Shown in pieces: positions 20,165-60,503 of a DNA stretch of 64,000 nt. How positions within the stretch are numbered: the stretch's first letter is position 1; every line of letters begins with the position of its first letter. Source of the stretch: Bdellovibrionales bacterium (GTDB lineage Bacteria > Pseudomonadota > Alphaproteobacteria > Micavibrionales > UBA2020). Made by a program: the position numbers and the translations under genes. Below the pieces are notes generated by a model that searched no databases, was not told the DNA's origin, and saw nothing but the letters and a program-made list of their open reading frames with translations. Location of the stretch: assembly GCA_038247245.1 (NCBI GenBank), contig JBBRVE010000004.1:22485-86484 (forward strand), written 5' to 3'.

Positions 20165-20202
20165 GAAGCCCGCCGCAGTCCCCGGCGGGCTTCTTTCTTT
20201 TG
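20165..20202 (+). terminator. Intrinsic terminator
   Basis: GAAGCCCGCC-(9 nt)-GGCGGGCTTC followed by tttctttt. Confidence 0.7.
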
Positions 20203-20296
20203 CAAATAGGGCATAATCGCCTAAAATCTTTCGTAAGTTTAGACCCCGCCCGCCCGTTAAAGGGATATTGCGGCATATTGCATCCGGAAGGCCCGC

Positions 20297-20857: not shown

Positions 20858-21110
20858 TGAGTTTTTAGGCGCGTATGCCGTGCGCGACGCCGACCGCGAA
20901 CTTCTGGAACGCATCATCACCGCTGCTGCAGCGCAGCCGCGCCCGGCGCGCCGCCATATTTTTGCGCAGGCGGCTATGTTTGCCGCCGTCGCTGTGACGG
21001 GTTTCTGGCTGGGCAACGCGACGCCCGCCCCGCAAACCGCAACAACCCAGAGCAATTTCATGGATAACGTCATTCTTGGCCCCGACAGCGTGGCCGAGAT
21101 GCAGATGTAG
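20844..21110 (+). CDS. Putative anti-sigma factor (small, single TM)
   Basis: Overlaps the sigma gene by 14 nt. 88 aa with a central TM (IFAQAAMFAAVAVTGFWLG). Called from position and architecture only. Confidence 0.5.
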   Translation: MDKIDEFLGAYAVRDADRELLERIITAAAAQPRPARRHIFAQAAMFAAVAVTGFWLGNATPAPQTATTQSNFMDNVILGPDSVAEMQM

Positions 21111-23061: not shown

Positions 23062-23601
23062 TTATAACGTAGGATTTTTGGGGTGACGCGGGGTGTCGTC
23101 GAGCGGGCCGGTCAAGGGGCCGGTGACGAGGCCATTTTGCGGCCCGTTTTGGGCGCAGTTTTCGCGCAGCTGCAGCAGTTCTTTTTTCACGGCGGCAAGT
23201 TCGGTGCGCAGCTGGTCGGCCTCGTAATCCTTGTCCATGAATTTGAGGCGCGAGACATAGGTCTGGCCGTTTTCCGACGGCACGGCGGCGGCGAAATTCC
23301 AGCCGCTGTCTTTCAGCAGGCGGAACATTTCCGTTTTACCGTCATGCACGACGGAGCGCAGGTAACCGGTATCGAGCGTGCGTGAACCCGGCGCCTCGAT
23401 CAGCAGGCGCGCCATGCGCACCTGATTGTTGGATACGGCCTTGGCCAGCGCCGCATCAAAAACCGCGGGCGGCGCCTCGATGTCTTTTTGCAGCAAGATG
23501 CGCAACGCCTCGATATTGCCTTCCTTGACCGCTGTCACCAGTTGCGATTTGTATTCGGTGATGGGGTCGTCTTTGCCGCCGAAGAATGTGCGAATGCTCA
23601 T
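23062..23601 (-). CDS. Ankyrin-like repeat protein with a C-terminal coiled-coil
   Basis: LVTAVKEGNIEALRILLQKDI...ALAKAVSNNQVRMARLLIEAPG...VVHDGKTEMFRLLKDSGWN are degenerate ANK-like helices, followed by DQLRTELAAVKKELLQLRE. Overlaps the upstream gene by 4 nt. Confidence 0.5.
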   Translation of the reverse strand: MSIRTFFGGKDDPITEYKSQLVTAVKEGNIEALRILLQKDIEAPPAVFDAALAKAVSNNQVRMARLLIEAPGSRTLDTGYLRSVVHDGKTEMFRLLKDSGWNFAAAVPSENGQTYVSRLKFMDKDYEADQLRTELAAVKKELLQLRENCAQNGPQNGLVTGPLTGPLDDTPRHPKNPTL

Positions 23602-32243: not shown

Positions 32244-34115
32244 ATGTCGCCTTTTGTTTTAAGTAAAGAAAACACCTTTGTGGCGGCATTGACGAGATTT
32301 CCCCTCGTCGTCGTATTCCTGTTCGCGTTGGCCATTTTATGCCTGACACCAGACTTGTGGAAGAATGACGCGCTCGGCGATGCGATAACCTTTATCGTAC
32401 TCTCTCTTATTTCGACGACTGCTATCCGGCTGTTTACAGAGGCGCGCGGATTAAGCGAGCTTTGGCCTGCGCTCGGCGTTCTTTTCGCCGCGGCTGTGAC
32501 ATGGCTGGTGCCCGACTACCAGCTGCCCATACTCTACGTATTGACCGCCAGCTGCCTCTGCCTTTCGGTGGCGCCATTTATCGCCCTACGGAAAACAGAC
32601 GCCGATTTCTGGCGCTTTAAATACGAGCTTGCCGCCGGTTTTTTTACTTCCGCCCTCTACGCCTTCCTGCTTGCCGCAGGCGTCACAGCCATTTGGTTTC
32701 TGCTGTCGCAGGCATTAGGCATTCACAAGCGCAGCTTTTTCAACCTTTACGGAATCGACAAGATATGGCTGGTAAGCTGGACGCTGTTTTTTCCCGCCGT
32801 TTTTGCGACCCGCATCTCCATGCAGGCCAATGTCAACAGCAGCACGCCGCCAAGCGCAAGCTTTTCATTCATCGTCAACCGGCTGGTGCTGCCGCTGATG
32901 ATACTGCTGATTGCCACTTACTACCTGTACGCGCTCAAGGTCGCATTCACCGGCGAGCTTGACCGGGCGATGGCGGCGAAAATTTCTCTGTCGATCTGCA
33001 CAGTCGGCATATTCGTGCGCTTCCTGTCATTTCCCGCACAACGCGCTGGCGACAGGTTGGCAGCTTTTTACTACAAATATTTTTATTCAATCGCCATCTT
33101 TCCCCTTGGCTGCGGCATCTATGCACTGGCTTGCACGGTTTCACGTTATGGCATGACGGATGCAAGATATACCGGCGGATTGCTTTTCCTGTGGGTGGCT
33201 GTGCTTGCAGCCCAGAACCTTGCCGCACAGGCACAGGCTCGCCTTTACAACGCCCCCGCCCTGCTGGCTGCGTTACTCCTGTTCTGCGCCTACGGCCCGC
33301 ACAGCGTTGTGGAATTGCCCGCCCGGTCACAGGTTGAGCAACCAACCAAGATGCTGCAGAAGGTGGGCGTCGTTCTGATGGACGGAAAAATTCAGCCTGT
33401 GCCGCAAGAACCCAGTTTTGTCGACCAAAAGAAAATTTCATCGGCAGTGGACTATATTTCTTCGCAGGGGGATTACAGCCGTATCCAGCATCTTGTCACA
33501 CCAATCCGCGATGTGTTGCCGGAAGCAAACGGGCGCACGACACCTTGCCGCCGTAGCCTGTTCCAGTGGAACTGCTATAGAAATTACAACGTTATGCAGG
33601 ACATCATGGAAACATGGGGGATGCAGTACATACCGCCCCACCAGCGTGAACTGCAGGCCAGAAACCCCAAGACATTGTCAATCCATGTGCTGCAGAACGA
33701 TTGGGGAAACTTCGCCAAGGTTATCACCTTCGCGCCCTTTACCTACGGCACGACAATATCGACCAGTGTGGATAATGCCCCAAAATCGAACGAAAGAAAA
33801 TATGGCGACGGAAAACAAATATCCTTATTGCTCAATACCGCAGAAATGTCCGCGACGCTGGATGACGGTCGCATTGTGCATTTTGCCGTGAGCGAAGCTT
33901 TTCAAAAACTCCAGACGGATAACAAGCAGTTGACAAAAGCGCACACCCGCAACCAGCGGCACGTTACGGATGACGAAGTCGCGGTGACGATTATTCCGGG
34001 CACAGGCGATTTCCCCGCCGAGCTGCGGCTGACCAACCTGTATGGGCAGGAAAAAGATGGCGGAATGAAAATAACAAGCATTTCAGGTGTCCTGCTGTTT
34101 TCCGACGACAAATAA
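32244..34115 (+). CDS. Polytopic membrane protein with a C-terminal soluble domain (possibly DUF4153-like; family name from memory, unverified)
   Basis: About 10-12 hydrophobic helices over aa 1-370, then a ~250-aa soluble domain. Clear paralogy to 34232-36127 (for example YGMTDARYTGGLLFLWVAVLAA versus YGVTEERYAIALAFVWLAGLTA). Confidence 0.7.
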   Translation: MSPFVLSKENTFVAALTRFPLVVVFLFALAILCLTPDLWKNDALGDAITFIVLSLISTTAIRLFTEARGLSELWPALGVLFAAAVTWLVPDYQLPILYVLTASCLCLSVAPFIALRKTDADFWRFKYELAAGFFTSALYAFLLAAGVTAIWFLLSQALGIHKRSFFNLYGIDKIWLVSWTLFFPAVFATRISMQANVNSSTPPSASFSFIVNRLVLPLMILLIATYYLYALKVAFTGELDRAMAAKISLSICTVGIFVRFLSFPAQRAGDRLAAFYYKYFYSIAIFPLGCGIYALACTVSRYGMTDARYTGGLLFLWVAVLAAQNLAAQAQARLYNAPALLAALLLFCAYGPHSVVELPARSQVEQPTKMLQKVGVVLMDGKIQPVPQEPSFVDQKKISSAVDYISSQGDYSRIQHLVTPIRDVLPEANGRTTPCRRSLFQWNCYRNYNVMQDIMETWGMQYIPPHQRELQARNPKTLSIHVLQNDWGNFAKVITFAPFTYGTTISTSVDNAPKSNERKYGDGKQISLLLNTAEMSATLDDGRIVHFAVSEAFQKLQTDNKQLTKAHTRNQRHVTDDEVAVTIIPGTGDFPAELRLTNLYGQEKDGGMKITSISGVLLFSDDK

Positions 34116-34231
34116 CCATCTGCACAAAATTGCCTTAATTTTGCCTTGCCGCCGTCATAATTCGACTCCGGCCCGTGTGGTAATCTGGGGGATAGACTGG
34201 ATATAAAAATTATATTTACGGCAGGTGGCAG

Positions 34232-36127
34232 ATGGATTTTAAGGCGTTTATCCGGCGGTTTCAGGTTGAGTATGTTTATAACGTATTAAAGGAAGCGTTT
34301 ATCCGTTTCCCCCTGTCGGTCATTTGCGCGAGCGGCGCGACCGTTACCTCGATCCTCGATACCCATGATGTTTCATGGCTGACGGATGACACGATTTACC
34401 GGCTGATGACGTTTTTCGCCAACGGCCTTGCGCTGTTCACGGCGGCGGGGCTGTATGCGGAAAGCGTGAACCTTGAGAAGACGCGCAAATGGGCGCTGAT
34501 GGCGGTTGGTGCGGGCGTGGCGGCGGCGTTTGCGTTTATCCCCGACCATTTTACATCTGCACAATTGTTTTTCGGCTTTGCGGTTGGGCTGACGATGCTG
34601 TTCGCGCCCTATATCGGGCGCAAGGCGCTGGAGGAAAGCGTCTGGCAGTTCAATTACCTGAACGGCGTCGGCCTCGCGATTGCGGGCATTTCGACCTTTG
34701 TGCTGTGCGCCGGTTTGTCGGCCATTCTGGGGTCGATGAATTACCTGTTCCCGATCCTTGATATTCCCGGCCGCATCTATGGCGATATCTGGATTTTCGG
34801 TGCGTTTTTCTTTGGCCCTGTCGCGTTCATGTACCAGATCCCGCGCCAGTTCGATTTTCTGGCGATGGATTGCGAGATGCCGAAGGGGATTTCGTTTATC
34901 GCCAATTTTCTTGTCGTGCCGCTGGTACTGATTTACACCTTCATCCTGTACGTCTATTCGGCGAAGATCGTCGCGCTGTGGGAATTACCCAAGGGCAACC
35001 TTGCCTATCTGGTGACGGGTTTCGGCGCGGCGGGGGTGGCGGCACGGCTGGCCGTTTTCCCGATGCGGCATACCGGCACGATATTGCTGCAGCAGTTTTA
35101 TAAATATTTCCCGTACCTGCTGCTGATCCCCCTCGCCCTTTTGGCGCTCGGCATCTATACGCGCATCAGCCAGTACGGCGTGACGGAAGAACGTTATGCG
35201 ATTGCGCTCGCGTTTGTGTGGCTGGCGGGGCTGACCGCATGGCAGATCTTGCGCCCGCGCGCGCAGCATATCAAACAAGTGCCGATGGCGCTGGCGGCGT
35301 TGCTGTTCATGGCATCCTTCGGCCCGTGGAGCGCGGTGCCGGTATCGGAAAACAGCCAGCTGGCGCGCCTCGAAGGCATGCTGCTGAAGACAGGCGTGAA
35401 AAACCCCGCTGGCGGCTATGCCAAAATCACGGATGAAGTGCCGTTCGAGACGCGCAAGGAAATCAGCTCCATCCTCGATTATTTTTATGAAGACCAGAAG
35501 TCCGGAAAAATTGCACATATCGAAGCGCCGTTCATCGCGGCGATAAAGGTAAAGTACAAGGATTACGACTGGGATGACCCCCAACATTGCGGCAGTCGCG
35601 GCTTCACGCGCTGCTGGAGCTATTACGGGCGCGGCGAAAAACTGATGCAGGCGATGGGGTTGCGTTACGTCAACCGTTACGACACCGAGGGCACGAATGA
35701 CGATTTCACGGTGCGCGCCAACACGCTCGACTGGAACATCGACACGCTGACACGGGTTGCGCCTTACGATTACATCGTGCGTTTCTGGGCGTATTCGTAT
35801 AACCAGACCGACTGGACGACCGAGCGAATCTTCCGCGAGGGCGGCAAAGATATACTGGCCGTCAAATTCAACATGACGGTGGCGGGTGTATTCACGGTGT
35901 CGACGCGCGATGGCCGCGCCGTATCGTTTGACCTGATGCCCGTGCTGTCTGGATTATATGCGGAGAAAAAAAGTGACGTGCAGGAGAACGAGGCGGGCCG
36001 CATGATGCTGACCGGGGAATCACAAGGCCTGCGCGTCGCCCTGCGCATGGGCGAACTGCGCGGCAAGGTAGTTGCGGGTAAACTGAATTTCGAAGGCGCG
36101 CAGATTACGGTGCTGTTGTCGCCGTAA
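34232..36127 (+). CDS. Polytopic membrane protein, paralogue of 32244-34115
   Basis: Same architecture and shared blocks (FYKYFPYLLLIPLALLALGIY versus FYYKYFYSIAIFPLGCGIY). Confidence 0.7.
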   Translation: MDFKAFIRRFQVEYVYNVLKEAFIRFPLSVICASGATVTSILDTHDVSWLTDDTIYRLMTFFANGLALFTAAGLYAESVNLEKTRKWALMAVGAGVAAAFAFIPDHFTSAQLFFGFAVGLTMLFAPYIGRKALEESVWQFNYLNGVGLAIAGISTFVLCAGLSAILGSMNYLFPILDIPGRIYGDIWIFGAFFFGPVAFMYQIPRQFDFLAMDCEMPKGISFIANFLVVPLVLIYTFILYVYSAKIVALWELPKGNLAYLVTGFGAAGVAARLAVFPMRHTGTILLQQFYKYFPYLLLIPLALLALGIYTRISQYGVTEERYAIALAFVWLAGLTAWQILRPRAQHIKQVPMALAALLFMASFGPWSAVPVSENSQLARLEGMLLKTGVKNPAGGYAKITDEVPFETRKEISSILDYFYEDQKSGKIAHIEAPFIAAIKVKYKDYDWDDPQHCGSRGFTRCWSYYGRGEKLMQAMGLRYVNRYDTEGTNDDFTVRANTLDWNIDTLTRVAPYDYIVRFWAYSYNQTDWTTERIFREGGKDILAVKFNMTVAGVFTVSTRDGRAVSFDLMPVLSGLYAEKKSDVQENEAGRMMLTGESQGLRVALRMGELRGKVVAGKLNFEGAQITVLLSP

Positions 36128-36281
36128 TGACGCTATTCTTTGCTGGTTTCAGGTATCAAGACACCGCAAACCCTTAATAACCCGCTATCGCAAATACCCG
36201 CTTGACATATACTCTTAACGCAGATATGTTATGCTCTTATTGAGAATATATTACAATCTCATCGAGCATAAGAGGGTGTCC

Positions 36282-37394
36282 ATGCAATCCGCCGTTAAAA
36301 TCAAGCAATCCCCCGTTTTAACCCCGCATGAACGCCTGAATGCGCTGCTGGAAGGCGCAGGGGTCAGCAAGACGGTCTATAGCTATGTGATGCCGGAGAC
36401 CGAAAGCACGCTGGACGCGCTGCTGGATGCCGACCGGGATGCGCTGCGCGGCATGTACCGCGAGGCCTGGACGCAAAAACAGGATGCGATGCACGAGGAA
36501 TTTTTTGCGGTGTGGAAGCAATGGTCCTCGCCCATCTTGCGCTTTAACGCGTTTGAATTTCCGTGGGTCTATACCACCGGCGGCGCGAGCGAGGCATTGC
36601 GCGAGGCTGTCTATGCTTATGGGCATGATGCGCGCATGCAGGGCTTCACGCCCACCATCCATGTGTTCGCGGGCGATTACGAAGGGTTTTCGGCCTATGC
36701 ACAGGCGGCGGGCATTGCCGTGGTCGCGCATAACCGCCGCGACTGGCAGACCGCGATTGAAAAGGTCGGCCCGCGCGACCAGTTTTACCTGAGCCAGCCC
36801 GCCGCGATTGACGGTAACGTCTGGGGCGATTTCGATGCCTTTGTGAACACCCTGTATAAACATCGCCCGACGGCGGCGGTGATGCTGGACCTGACCTATG
36901 TCGGCTGCGTCGCACGAGGATTTACCGTCGAGGCCTTTGCGCCCAATATCCGTGCCATTTTCTTTTCGCTCAGCAAGCCGATGGGCGTGTATTACCACCG
37001 CGTGGGCGGGATGCTGTCGCGCAGCTCCTATCCCGGGTTGTTCGGCAATAAATGGTTCAAGAATTTGCTGTCGCTGAAACTGGGCACGGCATTGATGCAG
37101 AAATACGGCGTGCATGAACTGCCGCGCAAATACGCCACCATCGGCCAGACGCCCGCGATTGCCAAGGCGCGGGCGGTGCTGGGGCTGGACCTCACCCCTG
37201 CCGATGTGTTTTTGCTGGCGAGCGCGCCCTATGCCGACAAGAACGACGAACTGGCGCAATATCTGGTACGCGGCGGCGCGGGCGATGAAAAACTCCGCCT
37301 GTGCCTGACGCCCATCATCGCATCCATCGTGAACCCCGACATCGATTCAACCGTGCGGGCGCGTGCACATGAGGGTGCGGGAGGCCGCACATGA
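36282..37394 (+). CDS. PLP-dependent aminotransferase-fold-like protein
   Basis: AGAGGG SD 5 nt before the ATG at 36282. TTGGASEALREAV, MLDLTYVG and FFSLSKPMGVYYHRVGG resemble the phosphate-loop / Asp / Schiff-base Lys pattern of fold-type I enzymes. Confidence 0.55.
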   Translation: MQSAVKIKQSPVLTPHERLNALLEGAGVSKTVYSYVMPETESTLDALLDADRDALRGMYREAWTQKQDAMHEEFFAVWKQWSSPILRFNAFEFPWVYTTGGASEALREAVYAYGHDARMQGFTPTIHVFAGDYEGFSAYAQAAGIAVVAHNRRDWQTAIEKVGPRDQFYLSQPAAIDGNVWGDFDAFVNTLYKHRPTAAVMLDLTYVGCVARGFTVEAFAPNIRAIFFSLSKPMGVYYHRVGGMLSRSSYPGLFGNKWFKNLLSLKLGTALMQKYGVHELPRKYATIGQTPAIAKARAVLGLDLTPADVFLLASAPYADKNDELAQYLVRGGAGDEKLRLCLTPIIASIVNPDIDSTVRARAHEGAGGRT

Positions 37395-38200
37395 AAAACA
37401 TCGAACTGGTTTTCGACAAGAACGATATCCACGACCATATACGCAGCCTGTGGAAGACGCCGGAATTCAAGCATTCGCATGCCTCCGGCGGGCTGGTGAG
37501 CCAGATCATCGACCGTTACGCGAACCTACCGCGTTTTTTCTATGACATGAGCGACGACCGGCTGGAGCGCGCGCATTTTTCCGTCTGGTGGTCGGGCGTT
37601 GCGTACCGCAGTTATCATCAGGACACTTGCAGCGATTTATATCTGCTGCATGAATTCGCGCATGGCGCGGATATGGTGCATATCGCGGGCGCGCATTCGG
37701 AAGGCTTCCGGCGCAAGATGCAGGACAACGAATTCATGGCCAGCACGCTGACCGAAATCGTCGCCTATTTTGATATGCCGAGCTTGCGCCCGCGCACCTT
37801 TAACGGCGCGATCTTCGCCGACCGTTTCATGAATGATCCCGCTTTGCAGGCGATGTGGCGCGATGACCCGAACCGGCTGGTGCAGGAGCTTTATTTCCGC
37901 CGCCGCAACGCGATGTTCTATCCCGACCGCAATGACCCCATCGAAATGTGGCTGCACGGATTTACGACGCAGAACGACAAGTGGTTCCGCATCTGGGGAT
38001 TGCGCTATGACGCGGTAGAGGTGGCGATGGAGAAATTCTCGCGCCGTGCCTTTGCGGGTGACCGCCGCGGCGCGCTGCTCGACCACATGGAATGGCTCGA
38101 TAAGCACAGCGTGAACGGCATTCCCTTCCGCACCGAAGCGGAAAAATTCGCCGATATCTATTGGGAAAAGCGCGATATGGCGACGGTGATGGCGGCTTAA
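37391..38200 (+). CDS. Hypothetical protein with an HExxH motif (putative metallo-hydrolase)
   Basis: ATGA overlap with the upstream gene at 37391-37394. YLLHEFAHGADMVH contains HEFAH. No other family recognised. Confidence 0.55.
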   Translation: MKNIELVFDKNDIHDHIRSLWKTPEFKHSHASGGLVSQIIDRYANLPRFFYDMSDDRLERAHFSVWWSGVAYRSYHQDTCSDLYLLHEFAHGADMVHIAGAHSEGFRRKMQDNEFMASTLTEIVAYFDMPSLRPRTFNGAIFADRFMNDPALQAMWRDDPNRLVQELYFRRRNAMFYPDRNDPIEMWLHGFTTQNDKWFRIWGLRYDAVEVAMEKFSRRAFAGDRRGALLDHMEWLDKHSVNGIPFRTEAEKFADIYWEKRDMATVMAA

Positions 38201-41366: not shown

Positions 41367-41687
41367 TCAATGGCGCGACTTGTACCCGCCCGCCTTGCCG
41401 CCCTGCAAAACGAAAATCAGGCGGTAAATCAGGTAAAAGGTCAGGGCCGGAGCAAAGAACACCACACAACCGGGCAGCGCCTCTATCTTGCCGCCCATAG
41501 GGCCCATTTTCAGCATCAGGCTGTGAAAATCATTGTAGAGGCCGGGCGCGATTTTCTTGAACCATTCCGTGGTTGTCTGCAGCTTGATCATGTTTTTGAC
41601 GAACCAGAAATAACACAGGTCGTAAATGAACATGACAAAGGACGGTATCATCAGGATTTTGCCGGCTGCCTGAAAAAATTCCATCAT
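41367..41687 (-). CDS. Small membrane protein (106 aa, about 3 TM), last gene of the DotM/DotL-like operon
   Basis: Starts 2 nt after the DotL-like stop. Hydrophobic helices IPSFVMFIYDLCYFWFV and GCVVFFAPALTFYLIYRLIFVL. Confidence 0.55.
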   Translation of the reverse strand: MMEFFQAAGKILMIPSFVMFIYDLCYFWFVKNMIKLQTTTEWFKKIAPGLYNDFHSLMLKMGPMGGKIEALPGCVVFFAPALTFYLIYRLIFVLQGGKAGGYKSRH

Positions 41688-41689
41688 GA

Positions 41690-44290
41690 TTAGGTCTCTC
41701 CATCTTTCTTCTCGGCATCAACGCCGATGACATCCGCCCAGTTGAGCGGGGATTTAACTTGTTGATCGGCCGCCTTCGCCAATTGCTCCACCGCAGGCGC
41801 GGGGTCCCAGGGCGGTGACATCATGGGGGGCTGCTGTTGCACTGGCGGCTGCACTGGTGGCTGCACAGGTGCCTGAACCGGCGTAGCGGGTGCTTCGTTG
41901 CGCGCTTCGGCGACCGCGTTTTGCCCAACGGTCGCGGACGCGCCGCCGATGACATCCATCCACGAAATAGGTGCGGGGAGTGCGGCTGCAGATGCGGCCA
42001 CGGCCGCTTCCTTGGCAGGTGCGCCGCCCGCGCTGATGACGTCTTCCCACGACACCGCTTTTGGCGCTTGCGTTGCCTGCGCAGACTGTTGCGCCGCCTG
42101 CGCTTCGGTAACGGGCGGTTCCTTGCGAATGCTGCTGGATGATGCATCGGCAGCGCCGATGACCTGCATCCAGTTGAGCGGGCCTGTGTTGCCGGTTGCC
42201 TGTGCCACAGCCACGGCAGCGGCTTTTTCGGCTGGCGATGTGATGGCAGCGGTTGCGGGCGCGCCGGCACCGGTCGCAGGAGCATCCACGGCGGCTGCGT
42301 CTTCGGGTTTGATCGTGCTATGCGCTTCGGCGACCTGTGCGACCGCGTTGATGCCGCATTCCAAAAGGCTGCCGCCCGATTTTTTCGCGGCGGCAAAGCC
42401 TGCGGCCAGCGCCTCGATATCATTATTGGTGCCGGATTGCAGCGCGGCGGGGTCCCATTTCGGGTTGCGCAGCCGCTTGAGGATGTCGTTCACGTTACGC
42501 AGTGATTCCAGCGCCTCTTCCGCCGGCGGCGGGATAGGCAGGAAGCGGTGGACGCGCATCGATTTCGCATCGCCGATGTGCGAGTTATACACCTGCATCT
42601 CGACCACGCTCTTGCCGAAGGCGACAATCGCACGCCCCTCCGTGAAGCCTTTCAGGCCATCATAGGATGCGCGTGCGCGCTGTTGCACGTTTGCCTGCTG
42701 GCTGTCCATATACGCCTTGCCGGAACCACCGCCCTGCCCGCCGCGCGAGAAGCCGGAGACTTCGGTCACCAGCGCGGTACCGACAGTTTTTTCAAAAAAG
42801 TCTTTTGTCTGGGTCGGGTCTTCAAGCTTGCCGAACAGTTTGATGTTACAGTTTGCCGTGATGGACCGTGCTTCTTCCTTCACGCGTTTTTCCAGCGCGG
42901 GCAAATCCTGACCGGCGAAGACGAGCGAGAAGCCGAGCGAACGGGCCTGCGCCGCCATGACCGCCATACCCGACGCGGTATAGTAACCGACCTCGTCAAA
43001 GATCGCGATGAAGGGGGTGGAGGAGTTGGTGGGTTTGTTCTCGATCACGACGGATGATTCACCCTCGACCGAGTTACCGAGCGTCGCACCCATCATACCC
43101 TTCAGCGTGGAGGAAATGATTTTACCAAGGTTGGCCGTTTCATCGCCCGATTTTTCAAGGGCGGGGATCAGCACGATCAGGATGCGGCGATTCAGGACGA
43201 CGTCGAGCATGTCGATATCGGCCGCCTGCGTATCGAAGATAAATCCGTAATCGTCGCCAAGCGACTGCATGGAGCGCGTGAACTGCATGGAAAGGTAACC
43301 ATGCTGCTGGCGGGGGACGGAGGTATCGACCGCGCCCGCATCGGGTGGCATCGGCTTTTCGTTTCCTTCGTCGTCGAACACGTGGTCGACATAGCCGGGC
43401 AATTCGTTCAGGTAGCCCTTGACCGCCGCGCGCAACGATTCCGGCACCGCCGCGTCGCGGCTGAGCTTGATGATGGCCTTGAACAGCAGGAACTGGCGGA
43501 TGACGCCGATCGACAGCGGGATGTTCTGGTTTTCGCGTTTCCACACAAGGCAGGGCATCAGCGACGAGACAAGCGCGACGGCGCGTTCTTTCCACATCGC
43601 GTTGTCGCCTTCGGAATCCGGCATCAGCGAAGTGAGCATGTTCGTAAGGTAAGACGGCGAGCCCGAGGAGAACGGGTTCAGCGTGTTCGACGGCACGCGG
43701 CCCGACACGTTACCCGTCATATAGTTCATGATCAGCAAATCGTCGTCGCGGCCAAAGCGGCGTGCCATCGCCGAGATTGTCGACCACAAGGACGTATCCG
43801 CTTTACCGTCGATGTAAATGAATCCCGATGCCCAGCACAGCGCGTTGCAGGCATAGGATTTAAGGCCGTAGGTTTTACCCGAACCGGTGGTGCCGAGGTA
43901 AAGGCAGTGCGTGCGGGCATCCGAGTTGGTAAACCAGATTTCTTCGTTCGTTTCGTGGTCGTTGCCAAGATACAGGATCCCGTCGGCCATGCCGAGCGAC
44001 CCGTCGGGCTGTTTGAAATTGGGATCCTTGATCAACGCCGATTTCGGCAACTTGAACGGCAGTGACACCTTTTGCTTCATCAGCCAGCGGAAATAAAGGC
44101 AATAGATGATGAAAACGATATCGCCGAAGTACTGCAGTGCGGGCGTCGCCAGAAAGCCGGTCGCTACCATTGCAAAAATGATAGACGCAGTTGAGGGATC
44201 AAGCGCGGTATCCTTCATGCGCACGGTCCACGGGCGGGCGTCGCGGAGGAGATCCGAGCCTTTTATCTGATATTTTTCCCGCAGAGCCAC
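41690..44290 (-). CDS. Type IVB coupling protein, DotL/IcmO (IncI TrbC)-like ATPase with a long repeat-bearing C-terminal tail
   Basis: 866 aa, GTG start. Two N-terminal TMs, PFKLPKS, Walker A LGTTGSGKT, ARRFGRDDDLLIMNYMTGN, SNTLNPFSSGS and Walker B IAIFDEVGYY. These blocks match my recollection of Legionella DotL rather than VirD4/TraG. Confidence 0.8.
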   Translation of the reverse strand: MALREKYQIKGSDLLRDARPWTVRMKDTALDPSTASIIFAMVATGFLATPALQYFGDIVFIIYCLYFRWLMKQKVSLPFKLPKSALIKDPNFKQPDGSLGMADGILYLGNDHETNEEIWFTNSDARTHCLYLGTTGSGKTYGLKSYACNALCWASGFIYIDGKADTSLWSTISAMARRFGRDDDLLIMNYMTGNVSGRVPSNTLNPFSSGSPSYLTNMLTSLMPDSEGDNAMWKERAVALVSSLMPCLVWKRENQNIPLSIGVIRQFLLFKAIIKLSRDAAVPESLRAAVKGYLNELPGYVDHVFDDEGNEKPMPPDAGAVDTSVPRQQHGYLSMQFTRSMQSLGDDYGFIFDTQAADIDMLDVVLNRRILIVLIPALEKSGDETANLGKIISSTLKGMMGATLGNSVEGESSVVIENKPTNSSTPFIAIFDEVGYYTASGMAVMAAQARSLGFSLVFAGQDLPALEKRVKEEARSITANCNIKLFGKLEDPTQTKDFFEKTVGTALVTEVSGFSRGGQGGGSGKAYMDSQQANVQQRARASYDGLKGFTEGRAIVAFGKSVVEMQVYNSHIGDAKSMRVHRFLPIPPPAEEALESLRNVNDILKRLRNPKWDPAALQSGTNNDIEALAAGFAAAKKSGGSLLECGINAVAQVAEAHSTIKPEDAAAVDAPATGAGAPATAAITSPAEKAAAVAVAQATGNTGPLNWMQVIGAADASSSSIRKEPPVTEAQAAQQSAQATQAPKAVSWEDVISAGGAPAKEAAVAASAAALPAPISWMDVIGGASATVGQNAVAEARNEAPATPVQAPVQPPVQPPVQQQPPMMSPPWDPAPAVEQLAKAADQQVKSPLNWADVIGVDAEKKDGET

Positions 44291-44316
44291 TTGTGTGCCG
44301 CTTCCTTATATTAAAC

Positions 44317-44820
44317 TTACTTGCCGCCGAACAGCTGGTCCGCCGGTACCGGTTCACCTGGCTTGGCGTAGGGGTTACGGCCCAGTTCCGTGCCCTGCAT
44401 CGTGGGGCGCGCAGGCTGCGCATTGCCGCCCGCCATATAATTGCGCACGGCGGTCGATGCCGTATCGAGGACGAACAGCAAGAAGATGATCGCCAGCCCC
44501 CATTTGACGACGCGCCACAACGTGCCGTTGCCCTGATTGCCGCCCGCCTGCACATCGCCGCGCAGCATGGCGCGCGTGATCATCTTGTGCGCATGCGCAG
44601 CACTTTCGCGGTCGGGATAAGTCGCGATCACTTCTTCGGGCTGGCCGGATTTATTCAGGATGACGCTCGACTTGCCGCCTGCGTCGCGGATTTCAAGGGT
44701 TGCCGTTGCAAGCCCGGACATATCCGCGCGCCAGACTTTCGGCTGTTCGCCGGAAAATGACACCACGAGGGCGGAGCCGACAACCTTGGCATCCACGTCT
44801 TTGCTTGTGCAGGCGAACAT
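44317..44820 (-). CDS. Hypothetical single-TM protein (167 aa) inserted between the DotM-like and DotL-like genes
   Basis: AAGGAGA SD 6 nt before the ATG at 44820. About 110-aa soluble domain, TM (WGLAIIFLLFVLDTAS) and a Pro-rich tail. Confidence 0.55.
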   Translation of the reverse strand: MFACTSKDVDAKVVGSALVVSFSGEQPKVWRADMSGLATATLEIRDAGGKSSVILNKSGQPEEVIATYPDRESAAHAHKMITRAMLRGDVQAGGNQGNGTLWRVVKWGLAIIFLLFVLDTASTAVRNYMAGGNAQPARPTMQGTELGRNPYAKPGEPVPADQLFGGK

Positions 44821-44832
44821 ATCCACTCTCCT

Positions 44833-46011
44833 TTATGCGTCTTCTTTTTTCGCGCCTTTTTTCTCGAGCTCGGGGATCGGGCGGGCAGCGGTGCTTTTCA
44901 TGTAAACCTCGAGGCCGCGGATCACCTCGTCGAAACGGGGCGTCGGAATTTTCTGGCCGGCGATCAGCTCGTTCGTGAAATGCACGAGCGCGCCCGATGC
45001 CTCGGCGCAATAGGATTTGCGGCCCAGGTTGTTCAGCGGATACCAAAGCGTCCTGTCATGGCCGCGCATCCAGACGAATTCAGCGGGCGCCATGACGCCG
45101 CCTTCTTCGCGCGCGCGCATCACGCAACGCAGTATGGCGGTGGTTTCATAGGCATGCTGGTCGGCGAATTTGCGCAGCGCACCGCCGGTCTTGGGGTTTT
45201 TCATGACCGCCTTGACCTTGGCTTTCAGCTTGGCGGAGGCGCGGAAGCCGCCTTCGGGCGTCCAGCTTTCCGACATCATGTTCAGGATTTCTTCGCAATC
45301 CTTACGCTTGCGGATCAGCTTCAGCGCGCAGGCGGCATACAGGCATTGGGCGTGGATCGGTAGCGCATCGGGGCCTTCCCAGCGTTTGCCCAGCTGTTCG
45401 GCAAGGGCGTGATAGGCGGCGTTGTAATCAAGCTGGCCGCCGGAATAGCTGATTGAATGATAGGCGAGCCATTCTTCGGGCGACAGCGCCTCCGAAAACA
45501 GCGGCAGCTGTTCCGGCACTGGCTGGCCGGGAGCGCGGCCCGGCATCTTGCGCGGGTCGAATTTCAAAAACGGCTTGATCGCGGGGAATGATTTCGCCTG
45601 TTCCTGCATCAGCGTCTCGAGACCCATCTTGCGGCGGTATTGCGTGCCGGGGCCGCGGAAAATGGTAAAGACGGTCATGACTGCCATGATCGCAAGGAAG
45701 ATATATTTAAGCGGCACCACGGCGACAAGGGTGGAGCGCTTGATATGCTCGATCGTGATATCCTCGACCGGAGCCTTGGGCAGCCAGTTCTGCCAGACAT
45801 GCAAAAGCTCGCGGCCCTGCGCATCACCGATGCCGAAATTTTTGCCGTAGACGCCGCGCACGACCCACATTTCGGCGATGCGCACATAGCGGACCATGTT
45901 GGTCAGTTCCGCGCTAAAGAAATGCCAGATCACCCAGCACAGGCCGGCGACTATGCCCACGATGATCGTGAACATGATGAAATCTTCATGCGGACTTTTC
46001 TGCTGCGACAC
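44833..46011 (-). CDS. DotM/IcmP (IncI TrbA)-like inner-membrane protein
   Basis: 392 aa. Two TMs (aa ~13-33 and ~95-117), then a cytoplasmic domain with HAYETTAILRCVMRAREEGGVMAPAEFVWMRGHDRTLWYPLNNLGRK, resembling the DotM C-terminal domain as I recall it. Sits immediately upstream of the DotL-like gene, as in icmP-icmO. Confidence 0.65.
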   Translation of the reverse strand: MSQQKSPHEDFIMFTIIVGIVAGLCWVIWHFFSAELTNMVRYVRIAEMWVVRGVYGKNFGIGDAQGRELLHVWQNWLPKAPVEDITIEHIKRSTLVAVVPLKYIFLAIMAVMTVFTIFRGPGTQYRRKMGLETLMQEQAKSFPAIKPFLKFDPRKMPGRAPGQPVPEQLPLFSEALSPEEWLAYHSISYSGGQLDYNAAYHALAEQLGKRWEGPDALPIHAQCLYAACALKLIRKRKDCEEILNMMSESWTPEGGFRASAKLKAKVKAVMKNPKTGGALRKFADQHAYETTAILRCVMRAREEGGVMAPAEFVWMRGHDRTLWYPLNNLGRKSYCAEASGALVHFTNELIAGQKIPTPRFDEVIRGLEVYMKSTAARPIPELEKKGAKKEDA

Positions 46012-55344: not shown

Positions 55345-55419
55345 GGACACATAGCTCAGCGGTAGAGCACTATCTTGACATGGTAGGGGTCACAGGTTCA
55401 ATCCCTGTTGTGTCCACCA
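55345..55419 (+). tRNA. tRNA-Val (anticodon GAC)
   Basis: Hand-folded: acceptor GGACACA/TGTGTCC, D arm GCTC-AGCGGTA-GAGC, anticodon arm CTATC-TTGACAT-GGTAG, T arm ACAGG-TTCAATC-CCTGT, encoded CCA. 75 nt. Confidence 0.9.
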
Positions 55420-55422
55420 CTT
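55374..55422 (+). repeat. attL: 49-bp direct repeat (3' part of tRNA-Val from the anticodon loop through CCA plus ctt)
   Basis: cttgacatggtaggggtcacaggttcaatccctgttgtgtccaccactt, identical to 58564-58612. Confidence 0.9.
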
Positions 55423-55524
55423 CCTAACGTAGAAACAAGGCGTTAGTCGAAGCATATACCAAGCAAAAAAGTCGAATAGAGCCAGTGGCACAATTGTGGC
55501 ACACGCAAAAAGGCTTTTCGACTC

Positions 55525-56283
55525 ATGGCGACTCTCAGAAAACGCAGTGACCGGTGGCATGTTCAGATTCGCAGGCGGGGGCATAAATCCCTTACCCATT
55601 CATTTTGCCTGAAAGAGGATGCTTTGGCATGGGCTAGGGCTATGGAGACCGCCATAGACCGTAAAGCCCTCCCTGGAGACCAATCGGCTATTGAAGATAA
55701 AACCCTCTGGGACCTTCTGCAAAAGTATCTTGATGAAGTCACTCCCAAAAAGAGAAGTCATAGGATTGAGGCCAATTTTATCAAAGCTTTCATGCGTATG
55801 GAAATCGCACAGAAGAAACTGACGGCTATCAGCCCCGCCGACTTTGCCTCCTTGCGGGATAAACGCCTGCAAGAGATTCAGGCTTCAACCTTTAACAGGC
55901 AGATCGGCATGATCCAGAGCGCGTATGAGACGGCTATCAGAGAATGGAACTGGCCTCTGACTGAAAACCCTTTAAAGCGTATCCGCAAGCCAAAAAACGA
56001 CCGTCCAAGAAACAGGCGACTAAACACCAATGAACTGACTAGGCTAATGGAGGAAATCAAAAGGACAAGAAACCCACTGTTAAAACCTGTTGTGCTATTC
56101 GCCATTGAAACGGGTATGAGGCAAGGGGAAATCCTACGAACCGAATGGAAACACTTAGACCGAGACAAGAAGATTCTATTGATCCCCCTAACCAAGAACG
56201 GAGAGCCAAGAACAATTCCGCTTTCCAAGGCTGCTTTAAGCATACTGGAGGACGTTAAGCAGACTGATGAGCGTATAACGTAG
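55525..56283 (+). pseudogene. Tyrosine-type integrase, C-terminally truncated
   Basis: N-terminus MATLRKRSDRWHVQIRRRGHKSLTHSF..KEDALAWA and the catalytic-domain start FAIETGMRQGEIL...TKNGEPRTIPL are present. The ORF stops before the HxxR and catalytic Tyr regions expected about 90 aa further on. Confidence 0.65.
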
Positions 56284-56367
56284 CTAGGAGCGCGGCCTAT
56301 GACGCCATGTGACTACTCGGGCCGGCCTCGTGATTATGTTAAGCGCGCGTATGCGCATCAGGCTGAG

Positions 56368-56730
56368 CTATCCAATCATACTTCTTTCTACGCCCAGTTC
56401 TTTCCAAGCTACACTTACAACATACTTGGCCTGTTCGAGACCAATATCGGCATCAAAGTATTTTCGAATCCATTCAGCCTGGATCTCTTCCTCGGAACGC
56501 CCCTCCAGCCAAGCTCTAAGTTTACCTATTTGAAACCAGTTTTTACGCGCATTAAGACGAGAATGCTTTACGGGATCGGGTAACAGACCCCTCACCTTCC
56601 ATGTATTAATTGTGGGCAGAGGAACACCAAGAACCAACGCAAGCTCCGCGCTCGAAACACAGCTCCAGACAGGGCGTCTCTCGTATCGGCTCCAATTTGC
56701 CCTCAGCTTTTGGGGGTTAACTTTCTGCAT
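56368..56730 (-). CDS. Helix-turn-helix DNA-binding protein (excisionase/AlpA-like regulator of the islet)
   Basis: VSSAELALVLGVPLPTINTWKVRGLLP is HTH-like. Start at Met21 (ATG at 56730) with an AAGGGA SD. Confidence 0.5.
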   Translation of the reverse strand: MQKVNPQKLRANWSRYERRPVWSCVSSAELALVLGVPLPTINTWKVRGLLPDPVKHSRLNARKNWFQIGKLRAWLEGRSEEEIQAEWIRKYFDADIGLEQAKYVVSVAWKELGVERSMIG

Positions 56731-56879
56731 TATTAATTCCCTTTCCCGTTTTCTGTGAAAGTTGAGACAGGTAGCGTGTGTAGAGGACATACTTCTATTT
56801 ATTTTTAAAAATAATTATTAATAAGAACCCACAATTGGCTAGACCAAGGGGGAGACGCCCCAAAAGTCCTCTACAACCT

Positions 56880-57650
56880 CTACCTCTTTATGCCTGTAGT
56901 AACTTCATCTACAAAGAACGCACCATAAGAGTCTTTTAGCACTCCGCATGCGGCCGCTTCAGGATATTTGGCCTTGTCCTTATAGATTTCTTTACCGTCG
57001 ACCTTAACTACAACCACAGCGTCACGCTCTGCCGATGCTGCGCGGAAGATAACGCGATCAACGAGCCTTACTGTGTTGTTTTTTCTGCCAGCTAGCGGCT
57101 TGAAGACCTTAATAGGATTGCCGAAACTCTCATCGTAAAGGGCACCTTCATGATGAAAACTGATTTCCACGCCTGCTGATTGCCAATCAGAAGGAACATA
57201 GTTTTCCCTACCAAGAACTTTGAAGGCAAACTTCTTATCTGGCTGGCCATGAAAACGATGTTCATCTTGATAAAGAGTGAAGTTCATGCGCTCCCAAAAA
57301 GGAACGGATGTTTCTGGCGTACATTCGATCTCAAGAACATTGACGCCCTTCTCTCTGAAAATCACTTCCATGTAATTGAAAAGAAGCTCACCGTATCCAA
57401 GCCCCCTTTTGCTTTCCTTGACGGCGATAATATCAATCGTCCTGTCGCCGAGTGCAAAAGCAATTGCCTTTTCGCCTTGCTTTCCGATTAGAACCGTAAG
57501 ACCGCCTCCCTGATGCGCCCTTTTGATGATTTCTCTGTTGCAGTAAAAGGAATGTCCATTGGAATCCTCCTCTTCCTTTAACCATTTCAAAATAGTTCTT
57601 AGATCAACATCGGTGGACTTACGGATCGTTATAGACTTTGTTTTGGACAT
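56880..57650 (-). CDS. GNAT-family N-acetyltransferase fused to a ~120-aa C-terminal domain of unknown family
   Basis: IIAVKESKRGLGYGELLFNYMEVIFREKGVNVLEIE (acetyl-CoA motif A-like R-G-x-G-x-G). The C-terminal half (HRFHGQPDKKFAFKVLG...VVVVKVDGKEIYKDKAKY...) is unrecognised. Low-GC codon usage. Confidence 0.7.
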   Translation of the reverse strand: MSKTKSITIRKSTDVDLRTILKWLKEEEDSNGHSFYCNREIIKRAHQGGGLTVLIGKQGEKAIAFALGDRTIDIIAVKESKRGLGYGELLFNYMEVIFREKGVNVLEIECTPETSVPFWERMNFTLYQDEHRFHGQPDKKFAFKVLGRENYVPSDWQSAGVEISFHHEGALYDESFGNPIKVFKPLAGRKNNTVRLVDRVIFRAASAERDAVVVVKVDGKEIYKDKAKYPEAAACGVLKDSYGAFFVDEVTTGIKR

Positions 57651-57736
57651 AAAATGTCCTCCTTATGAGTTATTCGTCAACAGAATGCCAATATAGTACG
57701 TAAGACCGTTGACATGAGTCTTCGCATGTTTTCTAG

Positions 57737-58033
57737 CTAGAAGGCTAAAGAACTTGTGTTTTCCAAGCATGGACTTGCCCTGCATCTGCTCAAACATGTA
57801 GTCCACCAAGACGCCACAGTGTCCATATCTTTGCTGGCAGCTTTGAAACCACCTGATATTAGGGGGCTTTTCCTACCAGCCTTGGAGGAGACAGGAAAAA
57901 TTGGCTTATTAAAATATGACGAATAAAATAACGCCTCTTGCAGCATCCACGCATTGCGGTCAATCAGTGCGCCTAGTGACGGTTTAGTTGTATCTTCCAA
58001 AATCGTATTCATCGTTTCCTCCGCAGAGAACAT
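57737..58033 (-). pseudogene. Remnant of a bifunctional primase-polymerase (prim-pol) N-terminal domain
   Basis: NKPIFPVSSKAGRKSPLISGGFKAASKDMDTVASWW resembles the prim-pol N-terminal block (hFPh...K.P...GFKDAT.D...WW). The frame collapses right after WW, and another frame continues to about 57660. Confidence 0.45.
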
Positions 58034-58563
58034 AAGTTGCCTATCCCCACCCGAACTAATTTCAGGTGAGTACCCAATCCCCCTTTTCAGGGTTCCAAGC
58101 TAATGTTCAGATCAGGCGGCTAGGCCGGAGGTGAGCCGGAAGCTTGGTACACTTCTGTGCTGCTCATTTTCATTACGCTTCTGCGTTAGTTTTCATTCCT
58201 GGTTTTTTAGTCTATGGACAACAAAGGAAAAAAATCTTATTAACCATAACTCTAAGGTAACACGAATTTTCGTGTTTGAGAATCACCTACGTGAGGGAGC
58301 ATAAATCCTTTAAGTGATTGATAATAAATGATAACATTAATTGCCCTTTTTAAAATTTTTTTTTGAAATAAAGGTGCTTTAAGGAGCCCGTGACGACACG
58401 GATGAAGGGTGAACCGCCCGCAATATCTGGCACATCTTTGGCACAAAAGAGGGCAGATTATTGGTTGAACGCACGAGTTACCTGTGCTTATATCTTCACA
58501 GATAGCACTGAACCTATTAGGTTTTTGTGCTTGTGTAGGTGGCCCATCGCGCAGGAGTCGATC

Positions 58564-58612
58564 CTTGACATGGTAGGGGTCACAGGTTCAATCCCTGTTG
58601 TGTCCACCACTT
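58564..58612 (+). repeat. attR: second copy of the 49-bp tRNA-Val 3' repeat
   Basis: Identical to 55374-55422, with different flanks on both sides. Confidence 0.9.
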
Positions 58613-58637
58613 ACCCCAAGGGGCGGTTCGAGAATTC

Positions 58638-60503
58638 ATGAGCAAGCCCGCCTCGCCCCCTGATACCAATCTGCGTCATCAAGCCATTACATTATTGTCT
58701 GCAGGCCGTTTCGACGACGGCATTGCGCTGCTTGAAAAGGCCGCCGTGCAGGCGCCGTTATCCGGCCTGATACAGGGTGATCTTGCGCTGGCGTATTGGC
58801 AGGCGGGAAAACCGGAACGGGCCGAAGCGCATTACAAGACCGCCGTAAAACTGTCGCCGGACCACGCTTATGCGCTGAACAGCTATGGCGCATTCCTGCT
58901 GGAGCAGGCGCAGCTGGAACAGGCGCGCCCCTTGCTTGAAAAGGCGCTGACTCTGGAGCCCGCAAATTTTCAGATCCAGAACAATATGGGCCTGCTGCTG
59001 TACAGGACGGGCGATCTGGCGGGCGCGGAAAAACACCTGATCGCGGCAATACGCGGAAACCCTAAATGGCCGAACCCGCATGCGAATATCGGGGATGTGT
59101 TGCGCGACAGCCGGCGGCCCGAGCTGGCTGAAAAAGCGTACAAGCAGGCACTGACGCTCAACCCCCGCCACGCACAGGCCTGGCGCAATCTGGGCGCGTT
59201 GTACGCAGAACAAAAACGCCTTGATGAAGCAATCGACGCGTTGCGCCGCGCTGTTGATATTTTTCCGCTGGAAAGCGCATGGCTGGTCCTGATGGACCTG
59301 TACGAAAAGACCAACCGCATAGATGATGCCGAAGAAGCACTGAAAAACACAAAACGCGTGCTGCCGCCATCGCCCTATATTGCCTTGTGCGAGGCGAAAA
59401 TCCTGCGCCGCCGCAACCAGTCCGATGCCGCGCTTGCGCTGCTGGAGGAATACAAGGACCTGCTGCGCCCCGATGCGATGCGCAATTCAACGTTCTTCTA
59501 CGAGCTCGGCCAGTTGTATGAGCGCAGCAACGACGCGGCACGCGCCTTTGACGCCTTTACGAAAGGCAACAACTGCAAGGCCCAAATGGCCGACCTGCAG
59601 AATTTTCATCCGGGAATTTACCCGTCGCTTGCCGCCCGCCTGCTCCGCGATTTCACGCCCGCCATGGCGCAAGGGCCGCTGCCGGACGGCGCGGAGCCTG
59701 CGCCGGTTTTCCTGATCGGCTTCCCGCGCTCCGGCACCACGCTGCTCGACCAGATCATGGCAAGCCATCCCGATATCGGGGTGGCCGAAGAAAAACCCGC
59801 CGTCGACAAGATGATCCATCATCTTGTCCGCACCTATGGCACCGCGCGCCAGCACGAACACCCCTTAAGCGATGCCTGCTATCCGGCAGCGATGCCCCAG
59901 CTGACGGCGCAGGATATTGCCATCATGCGCGAAAAGTTTTTTGCCGAACATGCGGGCACCGAACAAAAGCCGCTTTTTGTCGACAAGCTGCCGCTGAACA
60001 TCCTGCATGTGGGCTTGATCCAGCGCGTGTTCCCCAAGGCCAAATTTATCCTCGCCTTGCGCCATCCGTGCGATTCCGTTCTCAGCTGCTACATGCAGGA
60101 TTTCTTTTTAAACCCCGCCATGGTCCGCTTCCTCGACCTTCAGGATTCTGCGCGCTTTTACGATGAAGCCTTTAAGGTCTGGGAACACTACGCCAGAACG
60201 CTGAAACTTGACGTTCACACCATCCGCTACGAAGACGTCGTTGCCGATTTCCAGCCGACGGTGGCGAAGCTGCTGCAATTCCTGAATGTGCCTTGGCACG
60301 ATGCCGTGCTGGAATACGATAAAACGGCGCAGAAAAAAGGGCTGATCAACACGCCCAGCTACCATCAGGTCACGCAGAAAATATATACCCGCGCAAGCGG
60401 GCGCTGGCAGAAATACCGCGAACAGCTGAAGCCTGTGCTGGATATCCTGCAACCGCATGCCGAGCGTTACGGCTATGCCATGGGCGACAGCGAGCAGAAT
60501 TAA
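58638..60503 (+). CDS. TPR-repeat protein fused to a sulfotransferase domain
   Basis: N-terminal ~300 aa of TPR helices. FLIGFPRSGTTLLDQIMASHP (5'-PSB PAPS-binding loop) and downstream sulfotransferase-like blocks. Confidence 0.85.
   Translation: MSKPASPPDTNLRHQAITLLSAGRFDDGIALLEKAAVQAPLSGLIQGDLALAYWQAGKPERAEAHYKTAVKLSPDHAYALNSYGAFLLEQAQLEQARPLLEKALTLEPANFQIQNNMGLLLYRTGDLAGAEKHLIAAIRGNPKWPNPHANIGDVLRDSRRPELAEKAYKQALTLNPRHAQAWRNLGALYAEQKRLDEAIDALRRAVDIFPLESAWLVLMDLYEKTNRIDDAEEALKNTKRVLPPSPYIALCEAKILRRRNQSDAALALLEEYKDLLRPDAMRNSTFFYELGQLYERSNDAARAFDAFTKGNNCKAQMADLQNFHPGIYPSLAARLLRDFTPAMAQGPLPDGAEPAPVFLIGFPRSGTTLLDQIMASHPDIGVAEEKPAVDKMIHHLVRTYGTARQHEHPLSDACYPAAMPQLTAQDIAIMREKFFAEHAGTEQKPLFVDKLPLNILHVGLIQRVFPKAKFILALRHPCDSVLSCYMQDFFLNPAMVRFLDLQDSARFYDEAFKVWEHYARTLKLDVHTIRYEDVVADFQPTVAKLLQFLNVPWHDAVLEYDKTAQKKGLINTPSYHQVTQKIYTRASGRWQKYREQLKPVLDILQPHAERYGYAMGDSEQN

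Follow-up and report, generated by a model that had tools for sequence, protein, structure and literature searches.

The 64-kb stretch of contig JBBRVE010000004.1 analyzed here (hereafter, the window) comes from an uncultured alphaproteobacterium of the Micavibrionales and carries four close-packed genes on its minus strand: a homologue of dotM/icmP (trbA), a small gene that we term orfX (earlier orf167), a homologue of dotL/icmO (trbC), and a second small gene, orfY (earlier orf106) (Table 1). An initial annotation, made from the sequence alone, had described them as a stand-alone coupling-protein module with no secretion machine beside it, and had offered two explanations: an undescribed context, or a type IVB secretion system (T4BSS) whose remaining genes lie elsewhere. 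Our analysis favors the second. The operon is likely to be the T4CP (type IV coupling protein) sub-operon of a dispersed chromosomal Dot/Icm-type system (type IVB, MPF-I, class pT4SSi), and it looks orphaned because the Micavibrio group keeps its machine genes at several distant chromosomal sites.

The positions and spacing first proposed for the four genes were all found in the sequence. A Shine-Dalgarno sequence for orfX, AAGGAG, overlaps the dotM stop codon 8 nt ahead of an ATG; because homologues begin at the equivalent methionine and this ribosome-binding site precedes it, orfX most likely starts there. A 26-nt spacer containing a separate AAGGAAG separates orfX from the GTG of dotL, and 2 nt separate the dotL stop codon from orfY. 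GC content is 0.58-0.60 in the operon and 0.57 in the rest of the window, so that its composition matches its surroundings, as had been judged by eye. The gene directly upstream of dotM encodes tRNA-Thr. A promoter and terminator scan of the operon gave no signal above shuffled background.

Table 1. Features of the operon in the window, and the second locus of a related lineage (L-numbers denote related loci)
Feature	Position	Strand	Remarks
dotM/icmP (trbA) homologue	44833..46011	-	392 aa
orfX (earlier orf167)	44317..44820	-	167 aa from ATG at 44820; ORF 44317-44826 = 169 aa from GTG
dotL/icmO (trbC) homologue	41690..44290	-	866 aa, GTG start; type IVB coupling ATPase
orfY (earlier orf106)	41367..41687	-	106 aa
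Walker A of DotL, GTTGSGKT	43871-43894	-	residues 133-140; intact, invariant in DotL alignment A1
Walker B of DotL, FIAIFDE	42992-43012	-	residues 427-433; intact, invariant in DotL alignment A1
DotL low-complexity tail	41693..42496	-	residues 599-866; rich in Ala, Pro, Gln
Tail motif 1	42155-42181	-	W707
Tail motif 2	42032-42058	-	W748
Tail motif 3	41945-41971	-	W777
Tail motif 4	41723-41749	-	W851
dotD-dotC-dotB-icmT, then R64 thin-pilus-order genes	L097 10001-20951		ENA ERZ15185039; also L098, L099

Coupling proteins and their small partners

The 866-aa product aligned with Legionella pneumophila DotL (PDB 6sz9_A) over residues 6-598 (E = 1.5e-140, 473 bits), and with the NCBIfam model TrbC_conju at 1e-112 (378 bits, under NCBI's 800-bit equivalog cutoff). 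The next-best T4CP model was SXT_TraD (3.6e-18); VirD4, TraD and FtsK types gave 1e-18 or worse (FtsK_SpoIIIE, 0.024), and Pfam TraG-D_C gave 4e-9. These values uphold the initial assignment to DotL/IcmO rather than VirD4/TraG, and the label that JGI attaches to the homologues is likewise 'IcmO'. The N-terminal anchor comprises a hydrophobic segment at residues 34-52 and a second stretch, discerned by eye, at about 56-72. In an alignment of 23 sequences with identity down to 56% (alignment A1), approximately 250 columns are invariant. Judged by similarity, predicted membrane anchor and Walker motifs, the protein is of the DotL/IcmO/TrbC type.

Like its Legionella counterpart, this DotL is alignable across the membrane, nucleotide-binding and all-alpha regions (the 6-598 span above). 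Past residue 598, however, its tail is unrelated to that of Legionella DotL, although it stands where the latter has its C-terminal adaptor-binding region; possession of that region is a mark of the Legionella subtype and is not required of DotL/TrbC proteins in general. The tail holds four copies of P-[LI]-[SN]-W-x-[DEQ]-V-I-[GS], the last at the extreme C-terminus, and the tryptophans of the first, third and fourth copies are invariant in alignment A1. One to four such SWxDVIG-type motifs occur in the window clade (with a DotL at least ~64% identical and a GC content of 0.53-0.61) and in L007, L009 and L039, and none was found in loci of Micavibrio proper or in Piscirickettsia DotL. The repeats may be a docking motif that replaces the adaptor-binding tail of Legionella.

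The identification of the 392-aa product as DotM/IcmP also stood. It matched Pfam PF23127 (DotM_C) at 4e-44 (151 bits; gathering cutoff 27), NCBIfam DotM_IcmP_IVB at 1.8e-47 and IcmP(DotM) of PDB 6sz9_B at 1.3e-21. As in Legionella, two transmembrane (TM) segments (residues 11-29 and 96-122 by hydropathy) precede a cytoplasmic DotM_C domain (198-368), and dotM stands ahead of dotL in the order icmP-icmO, here with orfX intervening. Unlike the Legionella protein, the homologue scores under the NCBI equivalog cutoff (162 bits against 230), orfX separates the two genes, orfY follows dotL, and the module lies outside any icm block. The Legionella dot/icm genes are themselves split into two regions, an arrangement comparable to the one described here. 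Searches with tblastn found DotM in 85 related loci.

Neither small gene belongs to a recognized family, in agreement with the initial annotation: OrfX and OrfY matched nothing in Pfam, NCBIfam or PDB profiles. OrfX is predicted to be a single-pass (bitopic) protein with a soluble N-terminal domain of ~95 aa and one TM helix (~100-125); the tail that follows varies, but its end is a conserved G-x-P-[VIL]-[SP]-A-D-[DEQ]-[FL]-[LF] motif (alignment A4). In 83 of 84 loci, a jackhmmer search from the window's orfX recovered the ORF that separates dotM from dotL, which marks it, by homology and position, as a lineage-specific conserved partner gene of dotM and dotL. A single-sequence AlphaFold2 model placed seven strands and a helix in residues 11-90 (predicted local distance difference test score 80-88). 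The top Foldseek matches of this model were PH, PTB and FERM-F3 domains, all at E>=0.1 and none significant; the N-terminal domain is possibly PH-like.

OrfY has two clear hydrophobic segments by hydropathy (residues 11-29 and 70-93), not the three TM segments first suggested, and a Gly-rich basic C-terminus. Homologues were found solely in 24 loci of the window clade, beginning 0-25 nt past dotL, and it appears to be a small inner-membrane protein limited to that clade. Comparisons with close relatives gave ratios of nonsynonymous to synonymous substitution rates (dN/dS) of 0.03-0.20 for orfX, 0.05-0.14 for orfY and 0.04-0.05 for dotL. The three genes tested are thus under purifying selection, and the low values mark orfX and orfY as real, constrained genes.

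Other Dot/Icm genes in the window and in related genomes

The initial observation that the window holds no other T4BSS gene was confirmed twice. Pfam scans of approximately 50 ORFs in the 64 kb revealed no further Dot/Icm gene, and tblastn of 22 proteins from the Piscirickettsia Dot/Icm cluster against the window returned DotL and DotM only. No relaxase family was present among the scanned window ORFs or in the Pfam labels of related loci. The same Pfam scans identified ordinary chromosomal genes (spoT, rpoZ, clpA, lepB, two carboxypeptidases of the penicillin-binding protein 5 type, pyruvate kinase, phoH and flgC), a DsbA-like protein, one ankyrin-repeat protein and many proteins without assignment.

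Related genomes gave a different picture. With the Piscirickettsia proteins as queries, tblastn detected DotD, DotC, DotB and IcmT in sequence flanking the module at four Micavibrio loci (L074, L068, L047 and L053). In L104 and L105 these genes form a contiguous block with two genes of the module, in the order thioredoxin-like (CPHC)-unknown-SLT transglycosylase-DotD-DotC-DotB-IcmT-unknown-TcpQ-like-DotM-OrfX, and an intact DotL ORF was read after that block in L074. Although intact in L074, dotL of L104 (16502-19285) and L105 (15070-17680) is missing from the called-gene index; because an intact dotL can lack a gene call in this way, nothing can be concluded when the index lacks a protein.

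A search with DotC yielded 1860 relatives with a DotC/TraI Pfam domain. Contig JBQDYD010000001.1 (563,513 bp) carries both a DotL module, at ~210 kb (L080), and a DotD-C-B-IcmT locus, at ~399 kb (L094), ~190 kb apart: a split system on a single molecule. The dotD-C-B-icmT locus was also found in L095 and in a high-GC lineage (L097, GC 0.60), the latter reached by a profile search and a second homology search; this lineage probably belongs to the window's clade. A window-clade DotL, 76% identical to that of the window, is encoded on the L019/L101 chromosome. The initial annotation had proposed a synteny comparison as a check on whether the four-gene unit is conserved without a T4BSS. In that comparison dotM-orfX-dotL proved to be conserved and T4BSS genes to be present in relatives, adjacent to the unit in L074/L104 and distant from it in L080/L094, so the stand-alone interpretation is not supported. 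The result matches the alternative, a T4BSS encoded elsewhere, an outcome that the initial annotation had itself listed as a refutation.

Published screens agree. TXSScan Table S3 gives pT4SSi=1 and T4SS-typeI=0 for M. aeruginosavorus ARL-13 and EPB, both complete genomes (PMC4793230), and pT4SSi was also called in seven marine Micavibrionales, there meaning VirB4/IcmB/TraU plus more than six components (PMC9418006). The class denotes relaxase-less, Dot/Icm-type protein secretion. The Micavibrio pT4SSi catalogued by TXSScan/MacSyFinder (Abby et al. 2016; Needham et al. 2022) belongs to the same order and the same system type, and the window operon is the T4CP part of that catalogued system, in an uncultured sister lineage. 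Those screens tabulated presence only, so they report no split layout, no OrfX or OrfY and no DotL tail, and they did not include the window species. We found no paper linking Micavibrio to DotL, IcmO or IcmP by name.

Several points weigh against a dispersed T4BSS. For the window clade, exact-protein matching yielded no single record with both DotC and DotL, and we infer from relatives that the window's own genome holds the remaining T4BSS genes. DotO/IcmB, DotG, DotH, DotF and DotA were seen in none of the window and related loci, no search having been aimed at them in the Micavibrionales; for DotO/IcmB, DotG, DotH, DotA and DotI in this order we draw on the two automated screens just cited. 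Searches with tblastn revealed no homologue of DotN, IcmS, IcmW or LvgA near the module in any locus, which sets it apart from the Legionella coupling complex (DotL-DotM-DotN-IcmS-IcmW-LvgA-DotY-DotZ; PDB 6SZ9, 7OVB). Arginines 196, 197 and 217 of Legionella DotM also seem not to be conserved here, in an alignment judged by eye. Because these adaptors were not found nearby and the arginines are apparently not kept, the logic of substrate recognition may differ from that of Legionella. Lastly, the 2011 ARL-13 genome paper reported no evidence of a type IV secretion system (T4SS) (PMC3189940). Given the dotD-C-B-icmT genes in relatives and the published pT4SSi calls, we regard that statement as outdated; the discrepancy between PMC3189940 and Table S3 of PMC4793230 has seemingly never been discussed.

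Some of the same points would fit a true orphan module, in which DotL, DotM, OrfX and OrfY need no T4BSS channel and either form an inner-membrane translocase by themselves or feed another envelope machine, such as a type IVb pilus/secretin or a system like type II secretion. The 2011 report, the empty 64 kb and the lack of direct observation of DotO, DotG, DotH and DotA in Micavibrionales are compatible with it, as are the separation of the unit from all other dot/icm genes at most of 90 loci and the presence of two lineage-specific membrane-protein genes co-transcribed with it. We know of no T4CP, however, that works without a T4SS. The presence of dotD-dotC-dotB-icmT in the same genomes, contiguous with dotM-orfX-dotL in one lineage, and the pT4SSi calls in both cultured M. 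aeruginosavorus genomes and the seven marine Micavibrionales (PMC4793230, PMC9418006) make an orphan module very improbable.

Conservation and ancestry of the module

A homology search recovered relatives in the thousands, and uncultured Alphaproteobacteria supplied the highest-ranking matches. When one genome per species was scanned, 385 genomes contained a relative; the best 80 of these were nearly all Micavibrio or metagenome-assembled genomes (MAGs) of Alphaproteobacteria, and included M. aeruginosavorus HCB189. By these comparisons, dotM-orfX-dotL is conserved in at least 385 species, always among core genes. The window's DNA is 90.5% identical to chromosome OZ257145.1 over 21 kb, a value that suggests one genus and different species.

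Within the window clade, the order dotM-orfX-dotL-orfY-(ankyrin)-hydrolase-phoH is kept (for example in L001, L003, L006, L101 and L106), and the arrangement is stable across ~35 species. In distant lineages dotM-orfX-dotL occupies other core neighborhoods: tsaD-gpsA, lptC-lptA-lptB-rpoN, or argS-gyrB-recF-dnaN-dnaA. The last is the setting in Micavibrio proper, where a few kb separate the unit from argS, gyrB, recF, dnaN and dnaA, placing it beside the replication origin (L046, which is M. aeruginosavorus HCB189, NZ_CP195303.1 1-21958, and ~25 further loci).

It is very improbable that the operon is a decaying, non-functional leftover of a T4BSS otherwise lost in this lineage. Such a leftover would be consistent with the rest of the system being unseen in the window and in the +/-10 kb flanks read at every window-clade locus, and with the failure of exact-sequence matching to link a DotC gene to the clade. 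All four ORFs are nevertheless intact, with catalytic motifs preserved, dN/dS of 0.03-0.2, the ~250 invariant DotL columns among 23 sequences and the arrangement shared by the ~35 species.

Two known systems help to place the dispersed T4BSS proposed here. The DotL of Piscirickettsia salmonis (NZ_CP039048.1) was the closest in a plasmid collection (41% identity), and its DotC, DotB, DotD and IcmT are 36%, 41%, 24% and 30% identical, respectively, to those of Micavibrio locus L074. P. salmonis likewise has an unknown gene, encoding 167 aa, between dotL and dotM, but in the order dotL-hyp-dotM. This protein has no detectable relation to OrfX, and profile hidden Markov models of orfX and orfY matched none of the Piscirickettsia Dot/Icm proteins, the 167-aa protein included. 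Unlike the genes described here, the P. salmonis cluster is a single contiguous block that includes DotH, DotG, DotN, IcmW, DotA and DotI. The closest alphaproteobacterial plasmid DotL is that of Bosea pANAM02; because annotation there is poor, the plasmid was left out of further comparison.

The second system is that of the IncI1 plasmid R64 (trbA-trbB-trbC, traH-I-J-K, pilL-pilV), in which TrbA corresponds to DotM and TrbC to DotL. As in R64, the relatives' second locus has the order DotD(TraH)-DotC(TraI)-DotB(TraJ)-IcmT(TraK) behind a thioredoxin-like gene, and in L097 it continues into thin-pilus-type genes: icmT is followed by genes for a TcpQ/PilL-like protein, a secretin, PAP_PilO, an unknown protein, a T2SSE ATPase, T2SSF and a PilS-type prepilin. 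This pilus order suggests that IncI-like elements are ancestors of the system or have a common origin with it. The initial annotation had likened the position of orf167 to that of the thioredoxin-like TrbB. A TrbB-like thioredoxin gene does exist in the Micavibrio group; unlike in R64, however, it heads the dotD-C-B locus rather than lying between the trbA and trbC counterparts, and OrfX is not thioredoxin-like. The Micavibrio-group system further differs from R64 in being chromosomal, vertically inherited and dispersed, with no relaxase or oriT seen.

These differences bear on whether the operon is a relic of, or cargo carried by, an IncI-like conjugative element that had integrated, its trbA and trbC homologues serving DNA transfer rather than protein secretion. 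Such an origin would agree with the conjugative TrbC model being the top NCBIfam match of DotL, with homologues on thousands of conjugative plasmids, with the R64-like second locus (traH-I-J-K equivalents, thin-pilus pilL-S, TrbB-like thioredoxin) and with the tRNA-Thr gene directly upstream of dotM. It is made very improbable by vertical conservation in at least 385 species and in core contexts that include the neighborhood of dnaA, by a GC content equal to that of the surroundings, and by the lack of an adjacent relaxase, integrase or repeat borders, the lone integrase (55525) lying ~9.5 kb off beside a tRNA-Val gene. In addition, the Legionella DotL score (473 bits) exceeds that of the TrbC model (378 bits), and the TXSScan class pT4SSi is relaxase-less, with T4SS-typeI=0 for Micavibrio (PMC4793230).

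Other genes recur near the module. A ~250-aa protein with a pilin-like hydrophobic N-terminus and no Pfam match is encoded on the dotL strand in 27 loci, mostly downstream of dotL and immediately 3' of it in, for example, L084 and L104. In several window-clade relatives ankyrin-repeat genes lie between orfY and the hydrolase gene (L001 13011-14323, L101 5067-5786, L106 6058-6777), and L104 has a Fic-domain gene after the module (20041-20870); in the window, the ankyrin ORF is at 23062-23601, away from the operon. The ankyrin and Fic proteins encoded beside the operon in relatives are plausible secreted substrates.

Several contigs with Micavibrionales-type dotL or dotC are deposited as Patescibacteria, Alcanivorax sp., Pseudobdellovibrionaceae or Zetaproteobacteria (L014, L050, L080, L048/L064/L066/L071/L079, P0158), probably through mis-binning of MAGs or mislabelling.

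Elsewhere in the window, a tRNA-Val gene (55345-55419) precedes a short ORF for a phage-type integrase (55525-56283, 252 aa), and next comes a stretch low in GC (0.45-0.49 vs 0.57) with a GNAT acetyltransferase gene at 56880-57650; the interval 55345-59000 is probably an integrated island or a remnant of one. At 8206-9099 (minus strand), a 297-aa fusion joins a response-regulator receiver to a cytidine/dCMP deaminase domain that also matches MafB19-like deaminase, and two-component regulators do not usually have an output domain of this kind. A plus-strand run of unknowns at 32244-38200 contains two paralogous membrane proteins of ~625 aa, one of which matches DUF4153, and ends in family-less proteins of 387 aa and 269 aa that are both kept beside the module in L006.

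A probable dispersed T4BSS in a predatory order

Together, these results are consistent with a system split into several small operons around the chromosomes of the Micavibrio group. In the arrangement we propose, DotL would be a T4CP-family ATPase anchored in the membrane, presumably hexameric like other T4CPs and with its catalytic motifs intact, and DotM its membrane partner, whose cytoplasmic domain would bind substrate. OrfX would act as an accessory subunit, with a possibly PH-like domain in the cytoplasm and its conserved C-terminal peptide in the periplasm, and OrfY as a lineage-specific two-TM accessory subunit. We infer that the four products form one complex, which would recruit cytoplasmic substrates and pass them on; the receiving channel and ATPases (DotB, DotO, DotC/D and others) would be encoded at other loci. 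Proteins would be the substrates, perhaps including the ankyrin and Fic proteins, and would be delivered into bacterial prey or into cells of eukaryotes.

Micavibrio, an obligate epibiotic predator, preys on bacteria (PMC3189940). A more tentative proposal, which we consider possible though rather unlikely, is that the T4BSS of the group injects effectors into bacterial prey and that lineage-specific parts (the PH-like OrfX, OrfY, and the DotL tail with its SWxDVIG docking motifs) replace DotN, IcmS, IcmW and LvgA. Alternatively, the ankyrin-repeat neighbors may indicate that the targets are eukaryotic.

A Dot/Icm-type system in Micavibrio had already been catalogued, in supplementary tables only. 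The present analysis documents that the dot/icm genes of this predatory order lie in at least two small operons, one of which, dotM-orfX-dotL, is stable and often sits beside the replication origin; the finding corrects the still-cited 2011 claim that Micavibrio has no T4SS. The idea of a coupling module without a machine dissolves, and the main interest shifts to what a T4BSS does for a bacterial predator and to its unannotated accessory genes. OrfX, OrfY and the DotL-tail motif are candidates for substrate recognition by a non-Legionella T4BSS. A conserved effector-injection system would be an obvious candidate for how epibiotic predators kill and drain their prey and, if prey injection proves true, no earlier type IVB system would have had bacteria as its target.

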